Shown: positions 54,305-58,590 of the stretch, in pieces
Layout of the letters: every line of letters starts with the position of its first letter
Numbering within the stretch: position 1 is the first letter of the stretch
NCBI GenBank assembly: GCA_944386325.1
Contig: CALXAP010000002.1
Location: 63,030-127,029 of the forward strand
Direction: 5' to 3'
DNA: 64,000 bases
Source of the DNA: an uncultured Clostridia bacterium
GTDB taxonomy: Bacteria > Bacillota > Clostridia > TANB77 > CAG-508
Notes under the pieces: generated by a model
Told to the model about the DNA's origin: nothing
The model's database searches: none
What the model saw: only the letters and a program-made list of their open reading frames with translations
Position numbers and translations under genes: made by a program

Positions 54305-55375
54305 TTATTTATTATACAGTTTTTGTGCTAACATACACAATTTTATTATACCTTCTCTCGAAGTAGCTCTCACAAAGAAAGCAGTTTTGTGGCAGTATAT
54401 CGCATCATTTACTCCTGTTATTTTTGGTAAATTTGTTGATTCACCTGCCCATTCTTTTGGAAATGGTACAATTTTTTCAAATATATTCTTTTTATTAGAT
54501 GGAACACATTGTGCAGCCCATCCTCCTCTATGATATGGAAACATTACAAACTTAACAATTTTCTGTTCTTTTTCTTTTATATTTTTGTCCTGCATTATAT
54601 TGTTATTGTAGTCAATAACAACATTAATCCATGGCATGTGCTGTTTTGGAATTTCTAGAATATTGTTCTTTAGCCGTTTATTTCCATAGAATCCGTATGT
54701 CAATCTATTGTTGATTTCGTCCTGGGCTAAAACCTCATCTATTTTTTTTATAATATATCTTTTTACTATTTTTTGTGTTATTTCTAATACTTCATCAAAT
54801 AGTGTTTCATACGATTCCTCTACATACCATTTTGGTAAAAAAGAATGAATATAATTAAAATCTTTTGCAAGTTTTATCCCATTTTGATGCATATCTACAT
54901 TTTGTATTAAATCTGCATCAACTTCTAATTTTACTTGTTCATTTACTGTTCCTCTTGCTATTTCAGCAGTAACGAACATCTTTTCAATTACCTTTTTGTT
55001 CTTTAAAATTTCTTTATCAAATATTTTTTTTATTATTTGATCACCAAAATCTCTCCAAACAAAACCTGCATTTCCAAATACACTTCCGTCTTTTCTCTTT
55101 TCATTTACTCTGTGATAATGACCATATCTGCCATTTTCTCCATTTCCTTCTCCCATGTTTACAACATAGTCGCATTTTTCTAATTCTTCATATTTTTTGG
55201 TTCTAATTATAACAATTTCATCATCCTCATGTGCTATGCACAGAATCGAAATTGCTACTACTTCTCCAATATGAAAAATATTAGAATGTGTACCTATTAA
55301 TATCCGTCTTTTTACACTCTTTAATCCTTTAACTGTTTTCATAAAAAATCTCCTCCTTAAGTTAAATACTTCCAT
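54305..55375 (-). CDS. MYG1/UPF0160-family metal-dependent hydrolase-like protein
   Basis: The N-terminus IGTHSNIFHIGEVVAISIL resembles the MYG1 GTHSGSFHADEALA motif. 356 aa. Confidence 0.45.
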   Translation of the reverse strand: MEVFNLRRRFFMKTVKGLKSVKRRILIGTHSNIFHIGEVVAISILCIAHEDDEIVIIRTKKYEELEKCDYVVNMGEGNGENGRYGHYHRVNEKRKDGSVFGNAGFVWRDFGDQIIKKIFDKEILKNKKVIEKMFVTAEIARGTVNEQVKLEVDADLIQNVDMHQNGIKLAKDFNYIHSFLPKWYVEESYETLFDEVLEITQKIVKRYIIKKIDEVLAQDEINNRLTYGFYGNKRLKNNILEIPKQHMPWINVVIDYNNNIMQDKNIKEKEQKIVKFVMFPYHRGGWAAQCVPSNKKNIFEKIVPFPKEWAGESTNLPKITGVNDAIYCHKTAFFVRATSREGIIKLCMLAQKLYNK

Positions 55376-55659
55376 ATTATATCAAATTATTTTACATAAT
55401 TCAATAGTTGTTACTATTGAATTATGTAAAATATATAAAGATATTTATATTATTATATCAATATCGTATGAAGTTAATTGTAACCAATAGTTAGGTGTCA
55501 AAGCGTTTTTGTTTACATAATTGTATTTCGTATTGTTTTATGATATAATACTTTTGTAAAATTTTTAACAAACTGTAACTTAATTGTTACAAATATTTAT
55601 CAAATGCCCTTGTATAGGGAACAATCTACATATATTTTGTAGTAGGGAAAGGCTTTTTT

Positions 55660-55992
55660 ATGTATACATCAAAATTGAATAATGAACATATTGAGTTCAT
55701 GAAAAAACACAATTTAAATTACATTTGTTTCACAAATCCAAATGGGGAGTATTTTGTAAAAGATTATAATTCAAAACATCCTTATTCATCACATTCTTTT
55801 ATAAGAACTGATGGATATAAGAAATCAAATTCAAATCCAATAACTAATGAGAATTTTATAAAAGTATCTGATGCTACTTGGGTATTACATGTTCAGGTTA
55901 ATTTCAAAAATTATACAAAATCTAACATAAAAATATTATATACAAAAAATAGGGATATATCTAATATAAAACTTTTATTTGATATCGATTAA
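55660..55992 (+). CDS. hypothetical protein
   Basis: 110 aa. Terminator GTCTAGCATTTTGCTAGGCTTTTTT at 55999-56024. Confidence 0.4.
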   Translation: MYTSKLNNEHIEFMKKHNLNYICFTNPNGEYFVKDYNSKHPYSSHSFIRTDGYKKSNSNPITNENFIKVSDATWVLHVQVNFKNYTKSNIKILYTKNRDISNIKLLFDID

Positions 55993-56011
55993 TTTTAAGT
56001 CTAGCATTTTG

Positions 56012-56584
56012 CTAGGCTTTTTTCCATTCTCCATCTTGATATATGAGAATATCTCCTATTTTTATTTCTTCCTTTATATCATCTATTGGTAAATTTTCTT
56101 TTTCTGATGTAAATTGATTTATGCACTCGATATAATCTTTATTTACCTCTTCTACAACAAATTTATCATCAACTCTAGAATTTATTCTTTTTATTTTACA
56201 TTCTTCAATATACTTTTCAACATCTTGTTCATTTATTGGTATTCCTGTATAGTCAACATAAAAATTATTATCCTTATCTTTTTTAAGTACTTCTCCTATT
56301 TCTGGCATATTACCTTCAATTCTATCTTTTGGTATATAATAAATATCTTTATTATTATAATCAAAACACACAGCATAATCTTCTTCAAATCCTGCAAAAT
56401 TTAAACTGGTGTATATAGATATATCATCTAAAAATCTCTCAGAATTTGATTTTGTTATACTTTCTCCTAATTCATGTATAAAATTATCAACTACTTCTAG
56501 TCCCTCCTTATCATGAATTAAACTGTCTAAGCCCTTTAACACGTCATAAGACATGTCTTTTAAATCATCTAATAAATTATTCAA
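56012..56584 (-). CDS. acidic hypothetical protein
   Basis: 190 aa, D/E-rich, no recognisable motifs. Confidence 0.4.
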   Translation of the reverse strand: MNNLLDDLKDMSYDVLKGLDSLIHDKEGLEVVDNFIHELGESITKSNSERFLDDISIYTSLNFAGFEEDYAVCFDYNNKDIYYIPKDRIEGNMPEIGEVLKKDKDNNFYVDYTGIPINEQDVEKYIEECKIKRINSRVDDKFVVEEVNKDYIECINQFTSEKENLPIDDIKEEIKIGDILIYQDGEWKKA

Positions 56585-56708
56585 TTTTACACTTCCTTTA
56601 ATTTGGATATAAATAAGTAGATTTACTTATTTTAGAAATAATAGTTTTATTATAATACATAATTTTCCATATTTCAAGTATTTTTTGAATTTTTTAGGTA
56701 ATGCCATT

Positions 56709-56738
56709 GAGGGCGGGCGAACACTGTTCGCCCATACA
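56709..56738 (+). repeat. GC-rich palindrome family C copy inside the element
   Basis: GAGGGCGGGCGAACACTGTTCGCCCATACA. Confidence 0.7.
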
Positions 56739-56794
56739 GCTGTTATTTTGATTTTTTCTACAATTTATATGTGTAATTTTATGATTAAGTATTT

Positions 56795-57112
56795 TTATGC
56801 AACTCTTAATCCTGTATTTTTTATTTCTTCAATAAAAGGATTTCCTTCTTCGAAATCTTTTATTTTTATTGGATGTGGTTCTATTCTTAAATCTATATTT
56901 TGAGTTAATATCATTAATTCTACCATTAAATCTAGTGTATTAATATTACTATCTAATATTATGGCTATATCTATATCACTATCTTCATTATTAGTTCCCT
57001 TTGCATATGAACCAAATATATATACTTCTCTTACATTAAATTTCTTTGATACTATATCTATATATTTTTCAACTATATTTATTATATTTATATCAACATT
57101 TTTTTTAACCAT
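56795..57112 (-). CDS. minimal nucleotidyltransferase (MNT-type; putative antitoxin of a HEPN/MNT pair)
   Basis: GSYAKG...DSDIDIAI NTase signature. 105 aa. Overlaps the upstream HEPN gene by 25 nt. Confidence 0.7.
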   Translation of the reverse strand: MVKKNVDINIINIVEKYIDIVSKKFNVREVYIFGSYAKGTNNEDSDIDIAIILDSNINTLDLMVELMILTQNIDLRIEPHPIKIKDFEEGNPFIEEIKNTGLRVA

Positions 57113-57483
57113 TCTCTCATCTCCTTAATATTATTTATTTTTTCTTCTGTATATTCTTTTGTACACCTTTCATAAAACTCATTTTTATAATCCTCATATC
57201 TTGCACTTATATTAAATGAATTACATATAAATAATGTTTTTATTTGTTTTTGATTTAATTTCAATCCACATTTTTCTGCTAATATATTTAAATTATGAAT
57301 TTTAGGTGGATATGGATTATCTTCATTTATTTTAGCATATATTCCTTTTAATAATTTTTCTAATACGAGATGACCAATAAACAATGACCATGTATATTGT
57401 TTTACTTCATAATTTTTTATCATAGATTCATAATCTCTATCTGAACTTTCTACCCAATATTTTATTAATTCTTTTGAATTCAT
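57088..57483 (-). CDS. HEPN-domain protein (putative toxin of a HEPN/MNT pair)
   Basis: 131 aa, all-alpha, with a HEPN-like GHLVLEKLLKG segment. Genetic coupling to MNT. Confidence 0.55.
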   Translation of the reverse strand: MNSKELIKYWVESSDRDYESMIKNYEVKQYTWSLFIGHLVLEKLLKGIYAKINEDNPYPPKIHNLNILAEKCGLKLNQKQIKTLFICNSFNISARYEDYKNEFYERCTKEYTEEKINNIKEMREWLKKMLI

Positions 57484-57756
57484 TGATACCTCCTATTATA
57501 TAGAAATATTATTTAAAGTATATCATATTATTTTATATTTCACTATATATATTTTTAATATTTATTAGTATCTTAAAATATAAAGTTACTATTCACGGCT
57601 ATATTTTCAATTTTTTGAGAAATGCTTTCTAGGATCCAGCTTGTTATTTATTTTTTTTAATTATGGTTTATAGGTTTTGATATAATAATATTCTCCTTGA
57701 TTATCTTTATTTTTATTGATATACTACCTTATATTTTAACTAATTTGGAGGTTAAT

Positions 57757-58590
57757 ATGAAATTATATAAAATATTAATTACATTACTTTGTCTATTTCT
57801 TATACCTATATACTCTTTTGCACATGGTGGAAATATTACAGGATGGAAAGATAAAAACTCTGATAAAATAGTTCTTCACGATAATAAATATTATGGATAT
57901 CATAATGAAGATGGACAAAGACATTATCATCAAGTAGAATGGGATGAGAAAAAACAAAGATGGGTAATTATTGCTCCTGCTGTTTATTATGATGAAAATT
58001 TTAATGTAATATCTAATAATAATGATAATAATACAGAAAAAATAGAAGTTACACTCGCAGACACAGTAGATGGAGATACTGCTAAATTTATAATGAATGG
58101 CGAAGAAATTACTGTTAGATTCTTAGGAATAGATACACCTGAAACTGTAAAACCCAATACTCCTGTTCAGCCTTTTGGTAAGGAAGCTAGTGATTTTACT
58201 AAAAATAAATTAACAAATGCTTCTAAAATAGAAATAGAATTTGATGAAAATTCTGATCAAAAAGATAAATATGATAGATATCTTGCTTGGGTATGGGTTG
58301 ATGGTGAACTTATCCAGAATTTAATTATAAAAGAAGGTCTAGCAAAAACATATATGCTACAAAATAATTATAAATATGCAGGAATTCTTCAAACAAGTGA
58401 ATATGAAGCTCAAAACTCAAAAATAGGAATTTGGAGCCAAGAAACAGATTCTAATAATAATTCTGTGAATAATGTAAATTCCAATAATATTTCTACAGCT
58501 ACTTCTGATACTGTTACATTAGGTACAATTATAGTTGCTATTGTAATTTTTATCTTAACTTCACTAAAAATTATTAAGAAGAGAAAATAA
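57757..58590 (+). CDS. membrane-anchored thermonuclease (staphylococcal nuclease, SNase family)
   Basis: GGAGG 6 nt before the ATG at 57757 (the ORF track starts earlier, at 57697). Signal peptide MKLYKILITLLCLFLIPIYSFA. SNase motifs TVDGDTAKF and VRFLGIDTPE. C-terminal TM helix + KKRK. Confidence 0.8.
   Translation: MKLYKILITLLCLFLIPIYSFAHGGNITGWKDKNSDKIVLHDNKYYGYHNEDGQRHYHQVEWDEKKQRWVIIAPAVYYDENFNVISNNNDNNTEKIEVTLADTVDGDTAKFIMNGEEITVRFLGIDTPETVKPNTPVQPFGKEASDFTKNKLTNASKIEIEFDENSDQKDKYDRYLAWVWVDGELIQNLIIKEGLAKTYMLQNNYKYAGILQTSEYEAQNSKIGIWSQETDSNNNSVNNVNSNNISTATSDTVTLGTIIVAIVIFILTSLKIIKKRK

Follow-up and report, generated by a model that had tools for sequence, protein, structure and literature searches.

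The feoB gene of an uncultured gut Clostridia bacterium (lineage TANB77, CAG-508) is broken in two by an island of ~8.0 kb that carries a large serine recombinase (LSR). The island occupies positions 52549-60577 of the 64,000-nucleotide stretch of contig CALXAP010000002.1 that was analysed here, which we call the window. Its cargo consists of an overlapping pair of HEPN and minimal nucleotidyltransferase (MNT) genes, a SNase-type thermonuclease with a divergently oriented acidic partner (p190), a MYG1-family protein, a ProRS paralogue and a 110-residue orphan (p110). An initial annotation, made from the letters alone, had read this cargo as a defence or conflict module. The genes that it listed lie at or near the positions it gave and its domain guesses were borne out by Pfam, and the ProRS gene, which also lies inside the island, was missing from its list. 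We consider it probable, however, that the cargo is not one system at all: it appears to be a mosaic, made up of cassettes that are transcribed separately and differ in their histories, and carried by a non-autonomous LSR element in feoB.

Comparison of island copies carries this reading. Blockwise insertions and deletions distinguish the window island from the elements of sister species (L021, L022 and L111) and from a copy in the same species (L134). The HEPN and MNT genes lie on a cassette of ~0.87 kb (56761..57633) that is polymorphic for presence and absence within the species. It is present in the window island, the same-species copies L134, L135 and L136 lack it, with flanks that match the window at 98.7-99.4% identity, and it is missing from L021, L022 and L111 as well. 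The exact HEPN protein was found on 17 contigs; the exact p190 protein occurred on 33 and a close p190 variant on 36 more. The p110 gene is absent from L021, and two cassettes of sister elements, a gene for O6-alkylguanine-DNA methyltransferase (MGMT) and a copper operon, are absent from the window island. The genes of the proposed defence module are thus not inherited together.

A ~25-bp direct repeat, imperfectly matched between its two copies (56736-56760 and 57634-57658), bounds the HEPN/MNT insertion, which lies in the intergenic region shared by the SNase and p190 genes. In the allele that lacks the two genes, this point holds one intact copy of a REP-like repeat. In the window a full copy of the repeat (56671..56781, plus strand), with the palindrome GGGCGAACACTGTTCGCCC at 56715-56733, marks the left edge of the insertion, and a partial copy consisting of the left arm only (57593..57632, plus strand; E 0.004) marks the right edge. 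Another copy (54155..54256, plus strand; nhmmer E 1e-17) lies at the ProRS/MYG1 junction, with a counterpart at the equivalent position in L021 and L134, and in L022 a copy adjoins the MGMT cassette; REP-like repeats therefore stand at three cassette junctions. The repeat is a REP/MITE-like host sequence of ~100-110 nt that has the GC-rich palindrome GGGCGAACAnTGTTCGCCC at its centre. With partial copies included, the window contains it 14 times; besides those in the island, copies lie at 14216-14315, 19320-19431, 22171-22272, 28293-28404, 29581-29681, 31131-31203, 34578-34676, 35340-35438, 37717-37825, 38246-38340 and 63256-63361. The best matches of all of them are on the plus strand, the exact palindrome occurs 0 times in shuffled sequence, and neither the repeat nor the island matches an RNA family in Rfam. 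The GC-rich palindrome beside MNT was considered as a cassette-specific recombination site and was rejected because it belongs to a genome-wide host repeat. Two contigs (L004 and L005) break exactly at a copy of the repeat. The repeats of the host could act as docking points for swapping cassettes such as HEPN/MNT; this pair may be a selfish stabilisation or growth-arrest cassette dropped into one of them.

Terminator-like hairpins are abundant between the island genes (7 found, 1.1 expected), and one with a 20-bp stem lies at 52613..52659, between the left attachment site (attL) and the 3' end of the ProRS gene. A scan for sigma-70 promoters was uninformative in the AT-rich island DNA (77 found, 77.4 expected). 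Nonsynonymous and synonymous divergence (dN and dS) was estimated by the Nei-Gojobori method for the window against three sister species. Every cargo gene proved to be under purifying selection, with dN/dS between 0.07 and 0.33.

The borders of the island follow from the 15-bp sequence ACCATGTGCATGGGA (feoB sense), which is repeated directly at the two break points of feoB (attL core, 52549..52563; attR core, 60563..60577) and therefore gives the element its length of ~8.0 kb. The repeat is part of the conserved TMCMGFGCN codons, the attL copy coding for part of TMCMG, and the element-side arms of the two sites form an imperfect inverted repeat, as expected of an LSR attP site. The expected junctions are GCACTAACCATGTGCATGGGATTTGGTTG for attB (rebuilt feoB) and TTGTTACTACCATGTGCATGGGAATGACAATG for attP (circular form). 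The C-terminal part of feoB (FeoB_C/Gate; 51712..52560, minus strand) is severed by the island from the N-terminal part (from the G domain up to the first of the Gate segments; 60526..61818, minus strand), the last 12 residues of which are encoded by the element; in most related genomes the two parts are contiguous. Identical island copies were found on about 20 metagenome contigs, with feoB as the site every time. The recombinase gene (58869..60482, plus strand) encodes Resolvase, Recombinase and Zn_ribbon_recom domains (107, 56 and 33 bits, Pfam) with a catalytic-serine motif read as YARVST. Its start is overlapped by an open reading frame (ORF) of 46-50 residues (p50; 58736..58888, plus strand), which is kept across the feoB-element family, was detected in 9 lineages by tblastn and has a dN/dS of 0.16-0.17. 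This small ORF is a candidate recombination directionality factor (RDF), a group of proteins that share no common sequence signature (PMC5595907). The LSR and the small ORF are the only mobility genes of the island, and the initial annotation's description of it as a small integrative island that is non-autonomous, rather than a prophage, is supported.

The window island is one of a family. Over 100 other LSRs share 64-97% identity with its recombinase, and in the five cases in which the context was read (5/5) the gene adjoins the N-terminal part of feoB and is preceded by the small ORF, while the cargo varies. The element in L021 carries ProRS-MYG1-p190-SNase, that in L022 transposase-MYG1-p112-p190-SNase-MGMT and that in L111 csoR-copZ-copA-ProRS-MYG1-p109-p190-SNase-MGMT, whereas the L023 element carries LemA and DUF3137 proteins and the L104 element a single Bro-N protein. 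The comparison with other feoB-inserted islands that the initial annotation had proposed returned the same feoB site with cargo that changes. Elements of this type measure 3.3-10 kb and carry non-phage cargo throughout. Relatives were retrieved when the FeoB N-terminal part was the query; a search of genome contigs with the LSR alone gave none. The 80 GTDB species closest in FeoB include 6 with an LSR at the same point, and feoB is contiguous in most of the others; the host FeoB is only 60% identical to its closest match among the species representatives of GTDB. The csoR-copZ-copA copper-efflux operon and MGMT of the sister elements (L111, 1450-4189 and 9141-9668; L022, 5855-6421) show that stress and fitness cargo travels within the same element family. 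Three contigs (L104, L105 and L106; 7707-12732) hold a minimal element of ~3.3 kb with Bro-N as its sole cargo, and the adjoining feoB fragments look decayed, the N-terminal part being called as 275 + 85 residues and the C-terminal part being down to 201. A literature search found no paper describing feoB as a serine-recombinase target. A family of feoB-splitting LSR elements, which target the invariant TMCMGFGCN codons, may be widespread in gut Clostridia, and this target was previously unreported in the searchable literature.

The two halves of feoB remain under purifying selection even though the gene is interrupted. The N-terminal part has a dN/dS of 0.13-0.22 at a dS of about 0.55-0.64, and the C-terminal part a dN/dS of 0.10 at a dS of about 0.55 (against L111). 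Flanking host genes have dS values of 0.44-0.75 and most element genes 0.34-0.89, with values of about 0.9-1.3 for MYG1, p110 and p50 when compared with the two sister species that are further removed; the island has therefore diverged about as much as its host. ProRS (dN/dS 0.07-0.085), SNase (0.10-0.14) and p190 (0.20-0.26) all have dS values within the element range. The selection pattern on feoB fits long residence of the island with periodic rebuilding of the gene, and it also fits repeated insertion into intact alleles.

These data bear on a reading that we regard as possible but doubtful, namely that the island is a domesticated gene-intervening switch that holds feoB split until the LSR and an RDF excise it and restore the gene. 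The switch would be developmental or phase-variable, as in skin, gin, SPbeta and the cyanobacterial fdxN element, and the cargo would be passengers, which is compatible with a mosaic. Both halves of feoB are intact ORFs under selection in four species that all carry the island, the island genes have diverged to the same extent as the flanking host genes, the conserved small ORF beside the LSR resembles the 42-residue RDF GirX, and XisF is among the nearest NCBIfam models. Moreover, two contigs from different assemblies (L002 and L003) both start at window position 52557, inside the 15-bp att core; this shared break may stem from mixed junctions in the samples concerned (an empty site or a circular form). 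Against a switch, no empty-site or circular junction of the island was recovered; an attB-side pattern search of JGI metagenomes gave nothing, contigs of this species coming from ENA and Logan only. In one lineage (L104-L106) the split gene has a decayed look, feoB does not belong to the sporulation genes and none of these was seen in the window, and the same dN/dS values could arise if intact alleles were recently and repeatedly hit by site-specific insertion. A composite view can be offered tentatively, in which an LSR family that targets feoB, regulated or frequent excision, an element-borne SNase-p190 module and docking at REP-like repeats act together. In that view the island was kept through speciation in the host genus with both feoB halves functional, and excision would therefore have to be regulated or frequent. 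If it is true, ferrous-iron uptake is an on/off trait under recombinase control, and the SNase-p190 pair is a dedicated element-borne module of a nuclease and its intracellular inhibitor or regulator.

The HEPN gene (57088..57483, minus strand; PF05168, 'HEPN-T', class II; Pfam E 5e-17) lies 5' of the MNT gene (56795..57112, minus strand; Polbeta/NTP_transf_2; Pfam E 8e-16). As initially annotated, the two genes overlap; the overlap is 25 nt, with the MNT start inside HEPN, and each gene has its own Shine-Dalgarno sequence (AGGAGG before 57483 and AAGGAG before 57112). The MNT has an intact GSx10DxD motif, GSYAKGTNNEDSDID read straight from the sequence, and scored 47.5 bits against the NCBIfam model for MntA, which has a cutoff of 60 bits. 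The HEPN protein alone matched no PDB sequence, but a profile of its subfamily matched TT1696, TM0613 and the HEPN domain of sacsin and therefore falls into the PF05168 'HEPN-T' group. Residues F35, E42, K43, K46, H63 and R95 are invariant in 54 subfamily members, which share the consensus ARYPDYK. The Rx4-6H RNase motif is absent from the window protein, in which R95 is followed by YEDYKNEF with no His, and from the 54-member subfamily. In PF05168 proteins the motif His is often replaced and a conserved His occurs elsewhere, and in HEPN/MNT pairs the MNT gene is almost always the 5' one (Anantharaman et al., PMC3710099). Class II HEPN/MNT pairs (PF05168/PF01909) have been described as lacking the RNase motif, having a conserved tyrosine and a GSx10DxD MNT, and not having been studied biochemically (Yao et al. 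2020, PMC7641770). By the definition in that paper, a PF05168 protein without RX4H adjacent to a GSx10DxD MNT, the motif content places the window genes in class II. The label of a classic toxin-antitoxin or abortive-infection arrangement was accordingly not sustained, given the class of the HEPN protein, its missing Rx4-6H motif and its position upstream of MNT. The MNT, translationally coupled to HEPN, might nucleotidylate a conserved tyrosine (Y96 or Y99) in the ARYxDYK segment of HEPN. No homologue of the HEPN protein was found by tblastn in phage and plasmid collections.

The thermonuclease gene (57697..58590, plus strand; probable start 57757) encodes a SNase domain (PF00565, E 7e-28, 97.6 bits) within a layout of signal peptide, unassigned N-terminal region and C-terminal transmembrane anchor. 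The hydrophobic segments at residues 1-25 and ~255-276 of the 277-residue form agree with the signal peptide and C-terminal membrane segment that had been predicted. The protein aligned over its full length with S. aureus nuclease, for which we take the Ca-binding and catalytic residues to be D21, D40, T41, R35, E43 and R87. The DGDT, R, DTPE and R elements are conserved, and the enzyme looks catalytically intact from this alignment. It scored 140 bits against the NucI model of NCBIfam (cutoff 250 bits). We infer that it is secreted, tethered to the membrane and degrades nucleic acid at the cell surface.

Its divergent partner, p190 (56012..56584, minus strand), had been described as an acidic protein with no recognisable domain. 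It is indeed acidic (pI 4.3), but it is not domain-free: residues 66-112 gave a marginal match to DUF3006 (PF11213; 32.9 bits, cutoff 32.3), and an AF2 (AlphaFold2) model shows N-terminal helices followed by two small DUF3006-like beta-barrels. A literature search on DUF3006 found no paper, and tblastn found no p190 homologue in phage and plasmid collections. Homologues 35-45% identical to p190 are present in 20 metagenome loci, 17 of which have an adjacent SNase gene and 3 no SNase match. These SNases are 53-65% identical to the window protein, and wherever the SNase 5' end lies within the locus the gene is divergent from that of the p190 homologue. Given this pairing across loci, the two genes form the conserved core of the cargo. 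Many of the pairs lie beside LSRs that are 23-36% identical to the island LSR. On three contigs (L107, 4263-10907; L108; L109) another LSR family splits an EPSP-synthase/murA-family gene into fragments of 278 and 119 residues, and these elements carry the same SNase-p190 pair; that in L109 adds a Mob_Pre relaxase. The p190 protein could be a cytoplasmic, acidic two-barrel regulator or intracellular inhibitor of the SNase.

The MYG1-family gene (54305..55375, minus strand) encodes 345 residues from its probable start at 55342, the start used by gene callers on identical contigs. The product matched PF03690 (MYG1_exonuc; E 2e-38, 133 bits) over profile positions 2-316 of 318 and also matched solved MYG1 structures in the PDB. 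In the element clade FHIGE replaces FHxDE, NMGE replaces DVGG and YGHY replaces (Y/F)DHH. The loss is confined to this clade; bacterial homologues 36-41% identical and human MYG1 keep FHxDE, DVGG and DHH. A canonical bacterial homologue (P0305) is chromosomal, in a Sua5/MurG/FtsW neighbourhood (one context read). Mutation of DHH to ALL inactivates human MYG1 (PMC6582341). Family membership of this MYG1-like hydrolase, as it had been called, thus stands, whereas the hydrolase label is doubtful because the DHH catalytic motif is lost. Judged by its motifs, the protein is most likely a non-catalytic derivative, probably a binding protein, and it is still under purifying selection (dN/dS 0.11-0.17).

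Two further cargo genes complete the island. The ProRS paralogue (52752..54047, minus strand; 431 residues) is of the bacterial type, lacks the INS editing domain and matched TIGR00409 with 369 bits in two stretches. It is also present in the L021 and L111 elements, and its low dN/dS points to strong purifying selection; if it is the only proS of the host, the island cannot be lost. The p110 gene (55660..55992, plus strand) had been noted as lacking a recognisable domain, and searches of Pfam, NCBIfam, PHROGs and PADLOC gave no match. The gene is real, with counterparts 50-58% identical in L022 and L111 and a dN/dS of 0.31-0.33. Its AF2 model (pLDDT 47.5) was uninformative and was not used.

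It is unlikely, in our judgement, that these genes together make up a defence or conflict island, in which HEPN/MNT would be an abortive-infection toxin-antitoxin pair, the surface nuclease would destroy incoming DNA and the other proteins would be accessory defence factors. The HEPN and MNT domains are paired, the MNT matched the PADLOC candidate families PDC-S09 and PDC-M05A along with weak cyclase profiles, the SNase matched the PADLOC profile 'SNc+LTD' (C3a212), and strains differ in whether they have the HEPN/MNT cassette, a kind of variation common in defence genes. However, these are single-profile matches with no complete PADLOC system, and MYG1, p190, p110 and HEPN had no match. The HEPN class has lost the RNase motif and is untested (PMC7641770), the pair is missing from most island copies, and HEPN and p190 lack homologues in phage and plasmid collections. 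In addition, the genes form transcription units of their own, the catalytic motif of MYG1 is gone, and the cargo of sister elements (copper efflux, MGMT and ProRS) is of a fitness or housekeeping type.

Several points nevertheless weigh against the mosaic reading. Mobile islands with variable cassettes are a typical setting for defence genes, a HEPN/MNT pair of class II could still serve abortive infection or defence, and the PADLOC matches of the MNT and the SNase lean the same way. The loss of DHH does not exclude another activity of the MYG1-like protein. The link between the REP-like repeats and cassette gain is an association, a part for them in the mechanism being putative, and the evidence for all of the readings is computational.

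A mobilisable origin, with cargo of transfer-related function hitch-hiking on a conjugative helper, appears more improbable still. The LSR-SNase-p190 element of L109, from another host, carries a relaxase, but the island and its feoB-type relatives have no relaxase, coupling protein or recognisable oriT. It is very improbable that the island is what remains of a prophage or phage satellite after decay and loss of the structural genes: the LSR matches a phage integrase family (PHROGs phrog_95, 5e-105), phage records contain LSRs that are 30-43% identical, and the SNase has matches among phage nuclease PHROGs, but no match to capsid, tail, terminase, replication, repressor or lysis genes was obtained with Pfam or PHROGs, no DNA match exists among 50,697 phage records, and feoB-type elements are uniformly small and free of phage cargo. 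The best LSR match in the phage collection (MT837325, 43% identical) is a chromosomal-looking fragment of a higher-GC organism and was set aside. A megablast search of the island DNA against phage and plasmid collections was likewise negative. The cargo ORFs matched no phage structural, replication or conjugation profile in Pfam or PHROGs, in line with the absence of such genes from the initial gene list.

The remainder of the window is ordinary chromosome (rpsL-rpsG-fusA-tuf, addB, plsX and recG). Between feoA and feoB lies a gene for a 240-residue membrane protein with a weak TrkA_C match (61993-62715), an arrangement kept in all sister species. An ORF of 2478 residues (1879-9315) has SdrD B-like and von Willebrand A domains and is probably a giant surface adhesin. 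Downstream of rpsL, five small minus-strand genes (34757-37583; 69-147 residues) are interspersed with REP-like repeats, and each has a signal-peptide-like N-terminal segment.

For annotation, these results mean that a HEPN and MNT pair on a mobile island is not automatically a validated toxin-antitoxin or defence system, since motif state, gene order and presence or absence among copies alter the call. Natural, near-isogenic elements with and without the class II pair could give that class its first phenotype. A universally conserved motif in feoB serves a large family of serine-recombinase elements as landing site, and the LSR with its well-defined att sites may also interest genome engineers. 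Purifying selection on both split halves makes recombinase-switched iron uptake directly testable, and a conserved nuclease-partner gene pair is now seen to recur on LSR elements.

Comparison with known systems places each part of the island. B. subtilis YokF is a membrane-bound SNase of the LSR-bearing prophage SPbeta, and the window SNase is likewise predicted to be secreted and membrane-tethered, on an LSR element. It resembles the staphylococcal Nuc/NucI family in its full-length SNase fold and in the presumed Ca-binding and catalytic residues that it keeps. Unlike Nuc and NucI, it has an extra N-terminal region of ~65 residues and a C-terminal membrane anchor, is strictly paired with a DUF3006-like protein and stays under the NucI cutoff. 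The MYG1-like protein resembles the 3'-5' RNA exonuclease MYG1 (DHH superfamily) in its full-length family match and conserved C-terminal motifs and differs from it in its changed metal-binding and catalytic motifs and in its location on a mobile element.

The HEPN and MNT genes share with HepT/MntA a two-gene module and an MNT with the motif needed for AMPylation. HepT, in contrast, belongs to DUF86/PF01934 and has the RX4HXY RNase motif that the window HEPN lacks, the gene order is reversed, and the MNT is under the MntA cutoff. With class II pairs the window genes share a PF05168 HEPN without RX4HXY beside a GSx10DxD MNT and a conserved tyrosine next to a conserved arginine (ARYxDYK). They depart from that class in the HEPN-first order with its 25-nt overlap and in their host, a mesophilic gut Clostridia bacterium, the class being mostly archaeal or thermophilic.

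As a whole, the island belongs to a known class of LSR-borne, gene-intervening islands (gin/skin-like) with mosaic accessory cargo. In Bacillus cereus, gerE is split by the gin element, which the LSR GirC excises together with the 42-residue factor GirX (PMC5595907). Unlike the targets of gin, skin and SPbeta, feoB is not a sporulation gene. The gin element is also longer, at 28.6 kb against 8 kb for the window island with its one recombinase. Like gin, however, the window element is an island of non-phage type whose insertion point in a protein-coding gene lies in a short core repeat, and it combines an LSR and a very small adjacent ORF (46-50 residues, 42 in GirX) with other cargo unrelated to mobility.

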